From assembly GCF_030013205.1 (NCBI RefSeq), contig NZ_CP122648.1: a DNA stretch of 64,000 bases. One strand, 5' to 3'. Source of the stretch: Escherichia coli. GTDB lineage: Bacteria > Pseudomonadota > Gammaproteobacteria > Enterobacterales > Enterobacteriaceae. The translations under genes were made by a program, and so were the position numbers. Below the pieces are notes generated by a model that did no database searches, was not told the DNA's origin, and saw only the letters and a program-made list of their open reading frames with translations. Shown here in pieces: positions 1-8,142 of the stretch. Within the stretch, counting starts at the first letter, position 1. The number at the start of each line of letters is the position of its first letter.

Positions 1-115
1 GCAAGACGTTTATTTGAAGATTATCGATATTGTACAGTCACACGGCGCGGACTTTGCCTTCCCCAGCCAGACGCTGTATATGGATAACATTACACCGCCG
101 GACCAGGGTCGCTAA
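1..115 (+). CDS. ynaI: C-terminal fragment of an MscS-family mechanosensitive channel; 5' end lies outside the window
   Basis: Open frame from the window edge to TAA at 113-115 (tail ...[14 protein letters not shown]). Name assigned from its position next to mppA in the recalled K-12 order. Confidence 0.5.
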
Positions 116-165
116 ATCAGACATCACTGGCGTTATCCACAAGGGTAACGCCAGTTCCCATCACA

Positions 166-1779
166 TCAATGCTTCACAATATACATAGTCCGACTGTACG
201 CCACATCTTCCGGGTTATTAATGGGATAACCTTTCAGCCACGGCTTGATTAATCGTCCATTGGTATATTGATAAATTGGTGCAATCGGTGCTTGCTCCAT
301 GAGGATTTTTTCTGCCGTATTGTAATCGGCATTACGCGCTTTAACGGTATTTTCCGTTGATGCCTGGGCCAGTACTTTGTCGTATGCCGGATTGTTAAAG
401 CGTGAAATATTCCCTGAATGCGTTGACGTTAACAACGTAAGGAAAGTGGAGGGTTCATTATAATCCCCTACCCATGAGGCGCGGATAACATCAAAATTGC
501 CGGTGTTACGGCTATCGATATAGGTTTTCCATTCCTGATTCTGCAATTTAACATCTACGCCAAGGTTCTTTTTCCACATCGATGCTACAGCAATCGCAAT
601 TTTTTGATGGTTTTCTGAAGTGTTATACAAAAGCGTCAGCTTCAGCGGTTTTTGCGGACCATAACCAGCTGCGCTCAACAAAGTTTTTGCCTGCGCATTC
701 AGTTCTTCCTGACTCATTTGTTCAAACGGCGAAGGCTCCGGCGTAAAACCGGCAGTAACATCTGGTGTAAAATGCCACGCTGGCTTTTCCCCCGTCCCCA
801 ACACTTTTTCGGTCATCAGGCGGCGATCTATCGTCATACTTAATGCCAGGCGAACACGCTGATCGGCCGTCGGCCCTTTTTGCGTGCTAAACGCATAATA
901 ATAGGTCCCGAGCTGCGGCGGCGTATAAACCTGCCCCGGAATATCCTTCAACAGCTTCTGATACATATTTTTCGGGAAGGATTCGGTGATATCAATATCC
1001 CCCGCGAGATAACGCTTAGTGGCTGCGGATTCCTGATTAATTGGCAGGAAGGTCACTTTTTGCAGTACCGTTTTGGCGTTATCCCAATAATGGGTATTCG
1101 GCACCACGACCAGTTTTTCATTGACTATGCGCTCTTTAAGAACATAAGCGCCATTGCCGATCAGATTTCCGGGTTTCGTCCACTCTTTACTGCTTTCTAC
1201 GTTGGCTTTTTGCACTGGGAAGAAGGCAAAGTTAGCGGTTAAATTCACAAACCACGGCAACGGTTTATCAAGCTGGATTTTCAAAGTATGGGCATCAACT
1301 GCGGTGACGCCAAGCTGGTCAGGCGTGGCTTTACCATCAATAATCGCCTGTGCGTTGTTAATTCCCGCCAGCGCGGCAAACCATGCAAATGGCGACAATG
1401 TTTTTGGGTCCACCAGACGTTGCCAGCTGTAGACAAAATCTTGCGCCGTTACCGGTGTGCCATCCGCCCATTTTGCGTTATCGCGCAGGGTAAAAGTCCA
1501 AATACGGTTGTCATTACTTTTCCACTGAGTCGCAACGCCGGGGACAATCTCCCCTTTCTCGTTCTGATTCACCAGTCCTTCAAACAGATCGCGAATGACC
1601 TGAATCTCCGGCAGGCCCACGGCTTTAGCGGGATCCAGAGACGCTGGCTCATCTTTAATGTGGCGCACCAGCTCCTGCTTCTCTGCCAGTACTGTGCCGC
1701 TCGGAACTTCAGCAGCATACGAAAGAGAAATGCTGCTGACCAACAGCGCACAACACGTGACTGAAACAGAGTGCTTCAT
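166..1779 (-). CDS. mppA: Periplasmic murein tripeptide-binding protein (OppA paralogue)
   Basis: 544-codon ORF in the track; N-terminus MKHSVSVTCCALLVSSISLSYA is a signal peptide. Start placed at the internal Met (MKHSV) to give the recalled 537 aa. Confidence 0.9.
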   Translation of the reverse strand: MKHSVSVTCCALLVSSISLSYAAEVPSGTVLAEKQELVRHIKDEPASLDPAKAVGLPEIQVIRDLFEGLVNQNEKGEIVPGVATQWKSNDNRIWTFTLRDNAKWADGTPVTAQDFVYSWQRLVDPKTLSPFAWFAALAGINNAQAIIDGKATPDQLGVTAVDAHTLKIQLDKPLPWFVNLTANFAFFPVQKANVESSKEWTKPGNLIGNGAYVLKERIVNEKLVVVPNTHYWDNAKTVLQKVTFLPINQESAATKRYLAGDIDITESFPKNMYQKLLKDIPGQVYTPPQLGTYYYAFSTQKGPTADQRVRLALSMTIDRRLMTEKVLGTGEKPAWHFTPDVTAGFTPEPSPFEQMSQEELNAQAKTLLSAAGYGPQKPLKLTLLYNTSENHQKIAIAVASMWKKNLGVDVKLQNQEWKTYIDSRNTGNFDVIRASWVGDYNEPSTFLTLLTSTHSGNISRFNNPAYDKVLAQASTENTVKARNADYNTAEKILMEQAPIAPIYQYTNGRLIKPWLKGYPINNPEDVAYSRTMYIVKH

Positions 1780-1836
1780 AAGTTTCCCTCTAACCGACAT
1801 TAAAATTGATGCGTAATTATTTGTTTCGCCTTAAAG

Positions 1837-1866
1837 AAATGCAAACAACTTCCATCAAAAAAGTGA
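1837..1866 (+). repeat. 30-bp exact direct repeat, copy A (AAATGCAAACAACTTCCATCAAAAAAGTGA), upstream of mppA
   Basis: Read directly from the sequence; identical 30-mer at 5725-5754. Confidence 0.85.
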
Positions 1867-2115
1867 CAAAGGAAGCATCAAATGTTTTAAGTATCAATAT
1901 ATCAAATCAGATTTAGTGTAAATAATAGTCTCCAAAATGCGGTAAAGCACATAGAACTCCGAACACTACGTTCGGGCTTCGCACGTTCAAACCCGTTTTC
2001 GGTATCATAATCAGCATCTGTCGCCATTGTACGAAGAATAAAAAATGACCAAAACGTTGAAAGGAACTGAGAATACGTTAAGAGAAGAATTAAATTAATG
2101 TATCAGCAAGTAGTG

Positions 2116-3015
2116 CTAAACAGCACCTTTATACTTCAGCCTATCTATAAATAATGAGAATGCCGAGCCAGCATGTCGACGGTGTGGATAGTACAGGTGA
2201 TAACCGGGTAAATCTGGTGTGAATTTATCCAAAACACGTATCAGTTTTTATTCTTTAATAGCCCGCTCAACTTGATCATAAGGTAGATACGCCAATCCAT
2301 GCCCATCAATTGCAGCATCAATGATCAGGTCTATCGTATTCAGTAAAAGCTGACCTTCCATGCGAACACGAACTTCACGTCCACCGCGTATTAATCTCCA
2401 GCGATTTGCTGTACCCGATGTGGGAAGATACAAATTAATTGCCTGATGATCTATTAATTGTGACACTGACGTTGGAGCACTTCGACGAGAAAAATAATCC
2501 GGTGAGCCAACAATAGCCATTGGTATATCTGGCCCGATTCGAATGGCGATCATATCTTTATCCATCTCCCCACCCAGACGGACGCCTGCATCAAAACGTT
2601 CAGAAACGACATCGGTCAAACCATAATCAATGGTAAGCTGGATATCAATTTCAGGATGCGATTTCAGGAATGTGCGCATAGCTGGTAACAATATCGTTTT
2701 TGCTGCATGTTCTACAGTAGTAATACGTATTGTCCCGGATGGGCGGTTCTGCAGATCGCTCAGGGATGTCAGGGCAGAATCTATGTCATGCAACATAGGG
2801 CCAAGAACAGACAAAAGATGCTCGCCCGCTTCAGTGGGTACAACGCTGCGCGTGGTTCGCGTCAGAAGCCGCAATCCCAATCGTTCTTCTATACGGCGCA
2901 CTATCTGGCTTAAAGCTGACTGCGCCATGCTCAGGCGGGCTGCTGCGCGAGTGAAGCTACGCTCCTCTGCAACGACGACAAACGCCATCAGATCAGCGAT
3001 TTCTTCACGCTTCAT
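2116..3015 (-). pseudogene. pgrR: LysR-family regulator PgrR interrupted by an in-frame TAA at 2248-2250; expressed ORF 2248-3015 is 255 codons
   Basis: N-terminal LysR HTH (MKREEIADLMAFVVVAEERSFTRAAARL...). Translating past the TAA in the same frame gives KLIRVLDKFTPDLPGYHLYYPHRRHAGSAFSLFIDRLKYKGAV then TAG at 2116-2118, a typical LysR C-terminus. 255 + 1 + 43 = 299 codons, the length I recall for PgrR. Confidence 0.75.
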
Positions 3016-3039
3016 TCAGTATCTCCATACAATCTATTA

Positions 3040-3053
3040 ATCATTTAAATGAT
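3040..3053. promoter_or_regulatory. 14-bp perfect palindrome ATCATTTAAATGAT in the divergent pgrR/ycjY promoter region; candidate LysR-type (PgrR) operator
   Basis: Palindrome read from sequence. Flanked by a direct repeat GGTCTAATCA (3055-3064 and 3073-3082) and a second palindrome GTGATATCAC (3104-3113). Operator assignment is inference. Confidence 0.35.
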
Positions 3054-3152
3054 AGGTCTAATCATAATTTAGGGTCTAATCAACTTAATGATCAATATCT
3101 ATAGTGATATCACCAACCGTCAAAACGAACCGACAACTCCATGAGGAACGGA

Positions 3153-4073
3153 ATGATGAATAATAAAGTCAGCTTCACTAACAGCAATAATCCAACCATC
3201 TCTTTGTCTGCAGTGATCTATTTCCCTCCAAAATTTGATGAAACCCGTCAGTATCCGGCAATTGTGGTATCTCACCCAGGTGGGGGCGTTAAAGAGCAAA
3301 CGGCTGGAACCTATGCCAAAAAACTGGCGGAAAAGGGATTTGTCACTATTGCTTATGACGCATCTTATCAAGGTGAAAGCGGCGGCGAGCCGCGTCAGTT
3401 AGAAAACCCATACATTCGTACTGAAGACGTCAGTGCCGTGATTGATTACCTGACAACGCTTTCTTATGTCGACAATACCCGAATTGGTGCGATGGGAATT
3501 TGTGCCGGTGCAGGATATACAGCCAATGCTGCAATTCAGGATCGCCGCATCAAGGCCATCGGTACTGTTAGTGCGGTCAATATTGGTTCGATGTTCCGTA
3601 ATGGTTGGGAAAACAATGTGAAATCTATTGATGCCCTACCATACGTTGACGCGGGTTCAAACGCCCGAACCAGCGATATTAGTAGCGGAGAATACGCCAC
3701 TATGCCACTGGCACCAATGAAGGAGTCCGATGCGCCGAACGAAGAACTGCGTCAGGCCTGGGAGTATTACCACACCCCTCGCGCGCAGTATCCAACAGCA
3801 CCGGGTTACGCTACTTTGCGCAGCCTTAACCAGATTATTACCTATGATGCTTACCATATGGCGGAAGTGTACCTGACTCAGCCGATACAGATTGTGGCGG
3901 GCAGCCAGGCAGGGAGCAAATGGATGAGTGACGACCTGTACGATCGAGCATCAAGCCAGGATAAACGCTATCACATTGTTGAAGGCGCAAACCATATGGA
4001 TCTTTATGACGGCAAAGTCTATGTGGCTGAAGCAATTTCAGTATTAGCGCCGTTCTTTGAGGAAACTCTGTAA
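3153..4073 (+). CDS. ycjY: Alpha/beta-hydrolase fold protein (dienelactone-hydrolase-like)
   Basis: ORF 3141-4073; start placed at MMNNKV. Recognised as YcjY by sequence recall. Confidence 0.85.
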   Translation: MMNNKVSFTNSNNPTISLSAVIYFPPKFDETRQYPAIVVSHPGGGVKEQTAGTYAKKLAEKGFVTIAYDASYQGESGGEPRQLENPYIRTEDVSAVIDYLTTLSYVDNTRIGAMGICAGAGYTANAAIQDRRIKAIGTVSAVNIGSMFRNGWENNVKSIDALPYVDAGSNARTSDISSGEYATMPLAPMKESDAPNEELRQAWEYYHTPRAQYPTAPGYATLRSLNQIITYDAYHMAEVYLTQPIQIVAGSQAGSKWMSDDLYDRASSQDKRYHIVEGANHMDLYDGKVYVAEAISVLAPFFEETL

Positions 4074-4147
4074 TGAAACATATTCAAATCCGCAATAGTG
4101 ATATGGCCTGGCATATTACTGCCAATAATCTGGGAAAAGTTTCATGA
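4073..4147 (+). CDS. ymjD: 24-codon small ORF (MKHIQIRNSDMAWHITANNLGKVS) bridging ycjY and ymjC
   Basis: ATG overlaps the ycjY stop (TAATG) and its TGA overlaps the ymjC ATG (ATGA); GAGGAA 12 nt upstream. Below the ORF-track length cut-off. Gene name is tentative. Confidence 0.3.
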   Translation: MKHIQIRNSDMAWHITANNLGKVS

Positions 4148-4770
4148 AAAATGTACTGATTCTTGGTGCTGGCGGTCAGATAGCCCGCCATGTGATTAAT
4201 CAACTGGCAGATAAACAAACCATTAAACAAACTTTATTTGCCCGTCAGCCAGCAAAAATCCACAAACCCTATCCCACTAATAGCAAGATTATTATGGGGG
4301 ATGTACTGAATCATGCAGCACTGAAGCAGGCCATGCAGGGACAGGATGTTGTGTATGCCAACCTTACGGGGGAAGATTTAGATATTCAGGCAAATTCAGT
4401 GATCGCTGCGATGAAAGCCGGTGATGTTAAACGTCTGATCTTTGTTCTTTCCCTCGGTATTTATGATGAAGTTCCAGGAAAATTTGGCGAATGGAATAAT
4501 GCAGTTATTGGTGAGCCCCTAAAACCATTCCGCAGGGCTGCGGATGCAATTGAGGCTTCTGGACTGGAATATACAATTCTTCGCCCTGCCTGGCTGACTG
4601 ATGAAGATATTATTGATTATGAGCTTACCTCACGCAATGAACCATTCAAAGGTACGATCGTATCACGTAAGAGTGTCGCTGCATTAATTACAGATATCAT
4701 CGATAAACCTGAGAAACACATTGGTGAGAATATAGGCATCAATCAACCGGTGATGCTGCCAACTTACTGA
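4144..4770 (+). CDS. ymjC: NAD(P)-binding Rossmann-fold oxidoreductase; 3' end altered by IS1 insertion
   Basis: N-terminal MKNVLILGAGGQIARH is a GxGxxG dinucleotide-binding motif. The last 7 codons (PVMLPTY) and the stop are encoded by the IS1 left end; the original 3' end continues at 5526-5559. Confidence 0.6.
   Translation: MKNVLILGAGGQIARHVINQLADKQTIKQTLFARQPAKIHKPYPTNSKIIMGDVLNHAALKQAMQGQDVVYANLTGEDLDIQANSVIAAMKAGDVKRLIFVLSLGIYDEVPGKFGEWNNAVIGEPLKPFRRAADAIEASGLEYTILRPAWLTDEDIIDYELTSRNEPFKGTIVSRKSVAALITDIIDKPEKHIGENIGINQPVMLPTY
4740..4748. repeat. IS1 target-site duplication, left copy (CAATCAACC)
   Basis: Identical 9-mer immediately flanks both IS1 ends. Confidence 0.85.
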
Positions 4771-4803
4771 TTTAGTGTATGATGGTGTTTTTGAGGTGCT
4801 CCA

Positions 4804-5079
4804 GTGGCTTCTGTTTCTATCAGCTGTCCCTCCTGTTCAGCTACTGACGGGGTGGTGCGTAACGGCAAAAGCACCGCCGGACATCAGCGCTATCTCTGCT
4901 CTCACTGCCGTAAAACATGGCAACTACAGTTCACTTACGCCGCCTCTCAGCCCGGTACGCACCAGAAAATCATTGATATGGCCATGAATGGCGTCGGATG
5001 TCGCGCCAGTGCACGCATTATTGGCGTTGGCCTCAACACGATTTTCCGCCACTTAAAAAACTCAGGCCGCAGTCGGTAA
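4804..5079 (+). CDS. insA: IS1 InsA
   Basis: 91-aa ORF with zinc-finger-like CPSCS...CSHC N-terminus; matches recalled InsA. Confidence 0.9.
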
Positions 5080-5501
5080 CCTCGCGCATACAACCGGGCA
5101 GTGATGTGATTGTCTGCGCTGAAATGGACGAACAGTGGGGCTACGTCGGTGCTAAATCACGTCAGCGCTGGCTGTTTTACGCGTATGACAGGATGCGGAG
5201 GACGGTTGTGGCGCACGTCTTCGGTGAACGCACTCTGGCCACACTGGAGCGTCTTCTGAGCCTGCTGTCGGCCTTTGAGGTCGTGGTATGGATGACGGAT
5301 GGCTGGCCGCTGTATGAATCACGCCTGAAGGGAAAGCTGCACGTTATCAGCAAGCGTTATACTCAGCGCATTGAGCGGCATAACCTGAATCTGAGACAAC
5401 ATCTGGCAAGGCTGGGACGGAAGTCACTGTCGTTCTCAAAATCGGTGGAGCTGCATGACAAGGTCATCGGGCATTATCTGAACATAAAACACTATCAGTA
5501 A
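4998..5501 (+). CDS. insB: IS1 InsB (transposase catalytic part, made as an InsAB' fusion by -1 frameshift)
   Basis: 167-aa ORF overlapping insA in the -1 frame; matches recalled InsB. Confidence 0.85.
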
Positions 5502-5516
5502 GTTGGAGTCATTACC

Positions 5517-5525
5517 CAATCAACC
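5517..5525. repeat. IS1 target-site duplication, right copy (CAATCAACC)
   Basis: Identical to 4740-4748. Confidence 0.85.
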
Positions 5526-5577
5526 CGGGACTGATGGTGATAAGACATTCTTCATGTAAATCAATTATATAGCTACC

Positions 5578-5612
5578 ATCGTACTGTACTATGTGCAGTA
5601 CGATTTATTAAA
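5578..5612 (+). terminator. Hairpin (ATCGTACTG / CAGTACGAT, 9-bp stem) followed by a T-rich stretch, downstream of the original ymjC stop
   Basis: Inverted repeat read from sequence; lies about 20 nt past the displaced ymjC stop at 5557-5559. Confidence 0.4.
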
Positions 5613-5724
5613 CTTATTAAGGTGAACTGATCAATCAGATGCGATTAACATGTGTAGAACCAGTAAGAATAAAATACGCCATGTATATAACATTACGACA
5701 ATTCTAATATCTGCACATCAATGA

Positions 5725-5754
5725 AAATGCAAACAACTTCCATCAAAAAAGTGA
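5725..5754 (+). repeat. 30-bp exact direct repeat, copy B, upstream of mpaA
   Basis: Identical to 1837-1866. Confidence 0.85.
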
Positions 5755-5849
5755 TACAAGATCGATAACATAGCGTTGAAGAAAAGGATTTGATAATCCG
5801 CAAAATTTGCACAACACTGCCTGTAATACTTCCTGAACCAGAGACGATC

Positions 5850-6552
5850 ATGACCGTAACTCGCCCACGCGCCGAACGCGGCGCATTTCCGCCCGGAACA
5901 GAACATTACGGACGTTCATTATTGGGCGCGCCGTTAATCTGGTTTCCGGCCCCTGCAGCCAGTCACGAAAGTGGTTTGATTCTGGCTGGCACTCACGGTG
6001 ATGAAAACTCTTCGGTCGTCACGCTCTCCTGTGCTCTGCGGACGTTGACACCGTCTTTGCGCCGCCATCATGTGGTGCTGTGTGTGAATCCTGACGGCTG
6101 CCAGTTGGGGTTACGGGCCAATGCTAATGGTGTGGATTTAAACAGAAACTTTCCGGCGGCGAACTGGAAGGAAGGTGAAACCGTTTATCGCTGGAACAGC
6201 GCCGCTGAAGAACGTGATGTCGTATTGCTGACAGGTGACAAACCTGGCTCCGAACCTGAAACCCAGGCGCTGTGCCAGCTTATACACCGCATTCAACCCG
6301 CCTGGGTGGTCTCATTCCACGATCCGCTGGCCTGTATTGAAGATCCCAGACACAGCGAATTAGGCGAATGGCTGGCCCAGGCGTTTGAATTGCCTCTGGT
6401 AACCAGCGTCGGTTATGAAACGCCTGGCTCTTTCGGCAGTTGGTGTGCAGATCTCAACTTGCATTGCATCACCGCAGAGTTTCCGCCCATCTCCTCCGAC
6501 GAAGCCAGCGAAAAATATCTCTTTGCGATGGCAAACTTGCTGCGCTGGCATC

Positions 6553-6578
<26 letters not shown>
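5850..6578 (+). CDS. mpaA: Murein peptide amidase A (gamma-D-Glu-meso-Dap amidase)
   Basis: ORF 5790-6578; start placed at MTVTRPRAER to give 242 aa. Recognised by sequence recall. Confidence 0.85.
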
Positions 6579-7559
<981 letters not shown>

Positions 7560-7635
7560 ATAGCGTTTGCTGTGTTATTGACAGTTAGCATAAACTAGGT
7601 GTGACGTTAACTATATGTAAACAGGAAAGATAATC

Positions 7636-8142
7636 ATGTCACAAACCGTTCATTTCCAGGGCAACCCGGTTACAGTCGCCAATTCCATCCCGCAGGCGGG
7701 TAGCAAAGCGCAGACTTTTACTCTCGTGGCAAAAGATCTGTCTGACGTCACCCTCGGTCAGTTTGCGGGTAAACGCAAAGTGCTGAACATTTTCCCGAGT
7801 ATTGATACCGGTGTTTGCGCCGCATCAGTACGTAAGTTTAATCAACTGGCAACCGAGATCGACAACACCGTTGTGCTGTGTATCTCTGCCGATCTGCCGT
7901 TCGCCCAGTCTCGTTTCTGCGGCGCAGAAGGTCTGAACAACGTTATCACCCTCTCCACTTTCCGTAATGCTGAATTCCTGCAAGCCTACGGTGTGGCAAT
8001 TGCTGATGGCCCACTGAAAGGTCTGGCAGCGCGTGCCGTTGTGGTTATTGATGAAAATGACAATGTGATTTTCAGCCAGCTGGTGGATGAAATCACCACC
8101 GAGCCGGATTACGAAGCAGCTCTGGCTGTACTGAAAGCATAA
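7636..8142 (+). CDS. tpx: Thiol peroxidase
   Basis: 168-aa ORF; recognised by sequence recall. Confidence 0.95.

Follow-up and report, generated by a model that had tools for sequence, protein, structure and literature searches.

A 30-bp direct repeat upstream of mppA and mpaA in Escherichia coli as a probable scar of cassette insertion

We analyzed a 64,000-nucleotide stretch of Escherichia coli DNA (contig NZ_CP122648.1), hereafter the window, in which the genes mppA and mpaA point away from each other and are separated by pgrR, ycjY, an SDR-family oxidoreductase gene and a copy of IS1. A 30-bp sequence, AAATGCAAACAACTTCCATCAAAAAAGTGA, lies upstream of both mppA and mpaA in the same orientation, and this repeat is the subject of the present analysis. 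The original prediction, made from the sequence of the window, had reported the two copies and had proposed either that they are a cis-element shared by the two genes or that they are direct repeats, possibly a recombination scar, bracketing the segment in between. An exact search of the window confirmed that the 30-mer occurs twice, 58-87 bp upstream of mppA (left copy) and 96-125 bp upstream of mpaA (right copy). A third match with up to three mismatches was not found in the window, and none of 100 shuffled controls contained any match, which bears out the claim that the identity of the two copies is far beyond chance. The earlier figure of 3.9 kb for the bracketed segment is correct as a spacing, but it includes a later insertion of IS1, without which the segment measures ~3.08 kb. 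The features of the locus are listed in Table 1, in which gene coordinates are those of the RefSeq annotation of E. coli ETEC4079, whose chromosome matches the window identically.

Table 1. Features of the mppA-mpaA locus, with positions counted from the first nucleotide of the window
Feature	Position	Strand	Remarks
mppA	166-1779	-	RefSeq; start codon ends at 1779
Predicted sigma-70 promoter of mppA	1816..1844	-	-35 TTGCAT (1844..1839, in left copy), 17-bp spacer, -10 AATAAT (1821..1816)
Left (mppA-side) copy of the 30-mer	1837..1866	+	Exact match; derived CCATC variant, as in left copies of the E. coli strains examined
Inserted cassette	1867..5724		Non-coding left end, pgrR, ycjY, SDR gene, IS1, terminator-like hairpin, non-coding right end
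pgrR	2116..3015	-	LysR-family regulator, pseudogene here; RefSeq; translation with internal stop; matches LysR-family profiles
ycjY	3153..4073	+	Alpha/beta hydrolase, first gene of the cassette operon; RefSeq
SDR-family oxidoreductase gene	4144..4770	+	Full-length counterpart of the K-12 ymjC/ymjD pseudogene; 3' end cut by IS1
IS1	4749..5516	+	Later insertion; 9-bp target duplication CAATCAACC at 4740-4748 and 5517-5525
Terminator-like hairpin 3' of the SDR gene	5578..5604	+	Fold -17.2 kcal/mol, z = -3.1
Right (mpaA-side) copy of the 30-mer	5725..5754	+	Equals left copy here; ancestral CCGGC in most E. coli
Putative core promoter of mpaA (weak)	5790..5818	+	TTGATA (5790-5795), 17-bp spacer, AACACT (5813-5818)
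mpaA	5850-6578	+	RefSeq

Perfect identity of the two copies is rare in the species. In a collection of 5426 complete E. coli genomes, 4932 genomes contain the exact 30-mer, at 4992 places in all, and none of them has it at more than two; therefore, it is not a dispersed repeat family, the case in which the original prediction was to be abandoned. Two exact copies are present in ~60 genomes at most (about 1% at most), and the exact right-hand junction with the AT variant is found in 32 genomes only. In most E. coli the copies agree at 28 of 30 positions, the left one reading ..CCATC.. and the right one ..CCGGC.., and the copy-to-copy identity is 27-28/30 in K-12-like, JNE112863 and O157:H7 strains. 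The repeat does not extend convincingly beyond 30 bp: an extension to 37 nt at 92% identity was reported, but the added 7 nt agree at 4/7 positions only. Terminal inverted repeats or additional direct repeats were not found at the ends of the cassette (1867.. and ..5724), and the only terminal inverted repeats in the cassette region are those of the internal IS1. An Rfam scan of window positions 1-8000 gave nothing relevant, its one sub-threshold match lying inside pgrR, and a literature search did not retrieve a paper describing this repeat.

Relatives of MpaA were searched in one genome per species, and 80 loci were kept. Wherever mppA and mpaA are close together in genera other than Escherichia, they are divergent neighbors with 182-192 bp between them (228 bp in C. 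koseri), except in two Salmonella subspecies. The genes pgrR, ycjY and the SDR gene are absent from between mppA and mpaA in Citrobacter, Enterobacter, Kluyvera, Lelliottia, Leclercia, Trabulsiella, Raoultella and Kosakonia. Within the genus Escherichia, E. albertii, E. whittamii and three other lineages have a 182-bp spacer and no cassette. The spacers of about 70 species are colinear in alignment and each have the 30-mer region once; among the 73 distinct spacers the 30-mer falls at positions 58-87, where it covers the strongly conserved blocks GAAATGCAAAC and AAAGTGAT with a variable stretch between them. The spacer of the empty-site E. coli strain 98218 is also 182 bp long, made up of 57 + 30 + 95 bp, which is exactly what remains when the DNA between the copies plus one of the copies are removed. 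The proposal that the repeats bracket the pgrR-ycjY-ymjC segment is thus supported, as genomes without that segment have a 182-bp spacer with exactly one copy. Judged from these spacer alignments, the single-copy spacer is the ancestral state across the Enterobacteriaceae and the cassette is an insertion in E. coli. In the reverse scenario the two-copy arrangement would be ancestral, and all single-copy genomes, in the outgroups as in E. coli, would have arisen by deletion. Deletion between the repeats does happen (see below), but this scenario needs an identical and independent loss in dozens of genera with colinear one-copy spacers, and the module between the repeats is demonstrably mobile and found in unrelated contexts, so that we consider it effectively refuted.

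The two exceptional Salmonella subspecies, S. enterica subsp. arizonae (L023:6848-10000) and diarizonae (L026:6562-10000), carry another islet of ~3.1-3.4 kb in the same mppA/mpaA spacer, which implies that this short spacer has been struck independently. Their islet codes for a protein of the cytolethal distending toxin B family (NCBIfam score of 379 bits, with the cutoff at 189), located between two lipoprotein-like open reading frames. In diarizonae, homology to the ancestral spacer restarts inside the region equivalent to the 30-mer, and the conserved promoter blocks on the mppA side have been replaced.

The position of the 30-mer within the spacer bears on whether it could be an operator. 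A sigma-70 promoter is predicted for mppA whose -35 hexamer falls inside the left copy, the rest of which spans about -36 to -58; a consensus scan gave the same site as TTTGCA-18-AATAAT (1845..1816), and both predicted hexamers lie in the most conserved blocks of the 73 intergenic sequences. For mpaA, the consensus scan did not detect a strong sigma-70 match, and the putative promoter is below threshold. Its hexamers also lie in conserved blocks, 36 bp downstream of the right copy, which places the 30-mer at about -100 to -71. According to PMC5934670, which cites Shimada et al. 2013, the PgrR (YcjZ) regulon of E. coli K-12 comprises ycjY-ymjDC-mpaA, ycjG and ycjXF-tyrR. In experiments by systematic evolution of ligands by exponential enrichment (SELEX), PgrR was found to bind the ycjY/ycjZ spacer, that is, inside the cassette, and the upstream regions of mppA and mpaA are not listed among the SELEX sites summarized there.

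One might envisage that the 30-mer is a shared operator for PgrR or another regulator of murein recycling and that selection keeps the copies upstream of mppA and mpaA identical. The two genes do act in the same pathway, and the 30-mer covers two blocks conserved across genera together with the predicted mppA -35. Yet mppA and mpaA share a single copy in about 70 species, and in most E. coli the two copies are told apart by a position that is not conserved. At a species diversity of 1-2%, moreover, an identity of 28/30 needs no selection. The right copy lies about 70-100 bp upstream of the putative mpaA core promoter, and the SELEX sites summarized for PgrR include ycjY/ycjZ but neither of the two upstream regions. 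We consider a shared operator improbable. The suggestion that co-regulation through a common cis-element is the reason for the repeat thus finds no support, the copies being paralogues of one duplication. What stands of it is that the repeat consists of promoter DNA by descent, including the mppA -35 and the two conserved blocks; what does not stand is that the copies are independently maintained sites, and the reported PgrR site lies elsewhere.

The cassette occurs in four forms. The O157:H7 form (about 3.96 kb) contains pgrR, two alpha/beta hydrolase genes and the SDR gene, and the JNE112863 form (about 3.08 kb) has one hydrolase gene and the SDR gene. In the K-12-like form (about 2.4 kb) the SDR gene is cut after 138 bp, giving the ymjC/ymjD pseudogene, and the form in the window is that of JNE112863 with IS1 and its 9-bp duplication added. 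An integrase, recombinase or transposase gene was not found in any of the four variants, whose genes encode the LysR regulator, one or two hydrolases and the SDR protein. IS1 was considered as the source of the 30-bp repeat and rejected, because a separate 9-bp duplication belongs to it and the JNE112863, O157:H7 and K-12-like cassettes do not contain it. A further hairpin, CCGAACGTAGTGTTCGG, flagged as terminator-like, is located at 1959-1975 (-) in the non-coding left end downstream of pgrR; together with the hairpin at 5578-5604, terminator-like hairpins are thus present at both cassette ends.

A module in which a LysR gene is divergent from hydrolase-hydrolase-SDR genes is present on conjugative Klebsiella plasmids, in two different contexts and with 79% nucleotide identity to the cassette; the homology runs from the LysR stop codon to just past the SDR terminator and no further. 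A LysR-hydrolase-hydrolase form is found on the chromosome of Pluralibacter gergoviae, on a 3-Mb JGI contig and on metagenome contigs, where it adjoins nuo genes. Homologues of YcjY with 82-89% amino-acid identity are encoded in Pluralibacter and, among the alpha- and beta-proteobacteria, in Rhizobium, Mesorhizobium, Sphingomonas and Burkholderia. The presence of the module in unrelated contexts shows that it is mobile and that its origin is unrelated to murein recycling. As potential donors, the Klebsiella plasmids, Pluralibacter, the JGI genome and the nuo-adjacent metagenome contigs share only genes with the cassette, and neither its non-coding ends nor the 30-mer was found in them. Within E. 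coli, the diversity of the cassette is 1.6-2.2% (35-48 differences in 2207 bp), similar to that of the flanks, and the outer junctions are identical in all occupied genomes; hence, the cassette probably goes back to one old insertion. The conservation of YcjY across classes is unusually high for an uncharacterized alpha/beta hydrolase. Its best NCBIfam match, which is partial and below the cutoff, is to a quorum-quenching lactonase family.

In K-12 a deletion has reduced the SDR gene to the ymjC/ymjD pseudogene. On its right side this deletion stops at most 1 bp from the outer edge of the right copy (L003:4644-4812), and the 3' part of the SDR gene and the terminator-like hairpin are gone, both in the K-12-like strain and in Escherichia sp. 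E1V33. The latter represents a distinct lineage in which the same deletion junction was observed (L006:9740-9906). Divergence from E. coli is 10-13% in its flanks, against only about 3% in its K-12-type cassette; the left copy in E1V33 is of the native type and the right one of the E. coli type, with E. coli-like sequence running on for ~40-55 bp beyond the right copy. This pattern of divergence, together with the right endpoint, is in keeping with introgression by homologous recombination. Campbell-type integration of an excised circle was also considered for E1V33 and rejected because of the E. coli-like sequence beyond the right copy.

Among the cassette-matching "plasmid" records in PLSDB (NZ_CP134663.1, NZ_CP141089.1, NZ_OL790696.1, NZ_CP141085.1 and CP054253.1), several are 4.8-4.9 Mb long, and others, of 250-385 kb, contain pgrR, ycjY and mpaA. 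Such entries probably represent whole chromosomes, or fragments of them, that were deposited as plasmids, which would also explain why the E. coli collection has the 30-mer at six "plasmid" places.

The two positions at which the copies differ in most E. coli allow the history of the repeat to be followed. Outgroup spacers read ..CTTCCGGC.. or close variants of it, including MOD1-EC7003, the Escherichia lineage with flanks closest to those of E. coli, and in K-12-like, JNE112863 and O157:H7 strains the right copy has GG and the left copy AT. Since outgroups and right copies both read GG, AT is a derived mark of the left copy. The perfect 30/30 match in the window is then likely the result of gene conversion, by which the right copy acquired AT from the left one.

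The same mark identifies empty sites that were once occupied. An empty junction is present in 173 of the 5426 complete E. coli genomes (about 3%), and in 14 of these the AT copy is joined to the mpaA-side flank, an arrangement expected only by descent from occupied genomes and thus by excision. Anchored alignments of the flanks sorted the AT-type empty sites into three haplotypes that are 22-24 and 37-53 substitutions apart; excision of the cassette is recurrent in E. coli. Strain CP131_Sichuan, which has an AT-type empty site, does not differ from the K-12-like strain at any position in 2336 bp to the left, the first difference to the right is 1858 bp away, and it retains the K-12-specific G in gatGacat. 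These comparisons indicate that its site arose by precise natural excision between the repeats. Because K-12-type parents have an AT copy and a GG copy, the crossover can only have taken place in the last 11 bp of the repeat, which suggests excision by slippage or microhomology rather than by classical homologous recombination.

Deletion between short direct repeats in E. coli is either RecA-dependent, near the minimal length of homology, or due to RecA-independent replication slippage. The excision described here is similar in that a 2.4-3.9-kb segment between 28-30-bp repeats is lost precisely and one hybrid copy is left, the retained variant marking the position of the crossover, and the comparison of CP131_Sichuan with the K-12-like strain gave just this outcome, one hybrid repeat in otherwise unchanged flanks. 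It differs in that the deletion is known here as a natural polymorphism only.

Repeats of tens of bp also bracket acquired genes in integrase-type islands, in which excision regenerates the empty site, and the copies could accordingly be read as the attL and attR cores of a small integrative island whose site-specific recombinase has been lost or acts in trans. The foreign DNA between direct repeats, the natural strains with precise excision back to a single site and the K-12-type internal deletion, with its endpoint no more than 1 bp away from where the right copy ends on its outer side, would all fit, but excision to a single core is equally expected from repeat-mediated deletion. Not even the longest, 3.96-kb form of the cassette contains an integrase or recombinase gene, and the site is neither a tRNA or tmRNA gene nor the 3' end of a gene. 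The modules of the Klebsiella plasmids, Pluralibacter and the other contigs occur without this flanking sequence, their homology stopping at the gene ends, and the right endpoint in E1V33, about 40-55 bp past the repeat, is as for ordinary homologous recombination. We regard an island of this kind as very unlikely.

Target-site duplications provide another parallel. They too are direct duplications of native sequence around foreign DNA, of which the empty site has one copy, and the IS1 inside this same cassette shows a classical one of 9 bp. However, they are typically 2-14 bp long compared with 30 bp here, and the cassette lacks terminal inverted repeats and a transposase; the mechanism was therefore probably not transposition.

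Taken together, the two copies are very probably a duplication of part of the native mppA/mpaA spacer, formed when the foreign pgrR-ycjY-SDR cassette was inserted, with later precise loss of the cassette in some strains. In the ancestor, mppA and mpaA would have been divergent neighbors, their promoters lying back to back in a spacer of about 182 bp. In the E. coli lineage, a horizontally acquired cassette, consisting of the LysR regulator gene pgrR divergent from a hydrolase-hydrolase-SDR operon and having terminator-like hairpins of its own, would have entered between the two promoters, so that spacer positions 58-87, the 30 bp where it was inserted, came to lie on either side of it. Because the duplication arose at an insertion between promoters, each gene would have been left with its own upstream DNA: mppA would have kept its -10, its -35 inside the repeat and the upstream DNA to about -58, and mpaA everything from about -100 downstream. 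The left copy would then have gained the GG-to-AT change, and in the lineage of the window the right copy would have been homogenized to AT, most likely by gene conversion. The repeats would now serve as substrates for rare precise deletions of the cassette that restore the single-copy site. As to how 30 bp came to be duplicated, we would guess at an illegitimate integration, independent of any recombinase, at a staggered break that was then filled in.

Several points weigh against this reconstruction. We know of no bacterial transposition system that yields a 30-bp duplication, and the donor junction was not found among the relatives examined, which leaves the mechanism of formation a conjecture. 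There is a weak resemblance between the 7-17 bp that follow the left copy and those that follow the right one (4/7 here; 11/17 in O157:H7), which could reflect joining at imperfect microhomology or chance. Regarding excision, the 11-bp tract in which AT would have to be retained from an AT/GG parent is very short, and in some cases short-tract recombination may have imported an empty allele. About 159 of the empty sites (e.g., IAI39, ST648) are GG-type or variants of it; such sites may have been excised or never occupied, so that either state may be the ancestral one inside E. coli. Finally, the promoter positions are predictions only.

The insertion also affects how the PgrR regulon of K-12 is to be viewed. 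That regulon involves the same genes, and pgrR and the binding site reported for its product both lie inside the inserted cassette. However, the link between ycjY and mpaA follows from a lineage-specific deletion that is absent from the window, and the 30-mer is not among the PgrR sites summarized in PMC5934670. Because the K-12-type deletion removes the 3' part of the SDR gene and the hairpin, control of mpaA by PgrR would be read-through specific to that form. A wider proposal combines a recombinase-independent insertion, whether by staggered break and fill-in or by end-joining at imperfect microhomology, with the idea that the role of PgrR in peptidoglycan recycling in K-12 is largely an accident of the insertion and of the later terminator-removing deletion that fused the ycjY operon to mpaA. 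We put it forward tentatively, considering it as a whole somewhat doubtful. If it is true, PgrR would not control mpaA in strains with a full cassette such as the one analyzed here. In this strain ycjG (L-Ala-D/L-Glu epimerase; 6553-7517) is frameshifted according to RefSeq, and this frameshift, the stop in pgrR and the IS1 in the SDR gene imply that the cassette is decaying, as is part of the murein-peptide pathway.

The repeat is a real feature, but it is best explained as a fairly ordinary insertion scar of a familiar kind and not as an independently evolved shared operator. Striking as its exactness is, it would then not be a regulatory motif and is unsuited to mining as an operator. Nor does the locus reveal a new kind of element, although it offers a natural system for studying deletion between short repeats. 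The pgrR-ycjY-SDR genes, by annotation part of the murein-recycling neighborhood of K-12, are a foreign, plasmid-associated module within a conserved divergent promoter, and their presence or absence is a natural polymorphism in E. coli. The K-12 operon structure ycjY-ymjDC-mpaA is lineage-specific, which is relevant to the interpretation of PgrR regulon data and to pan-genome calls.

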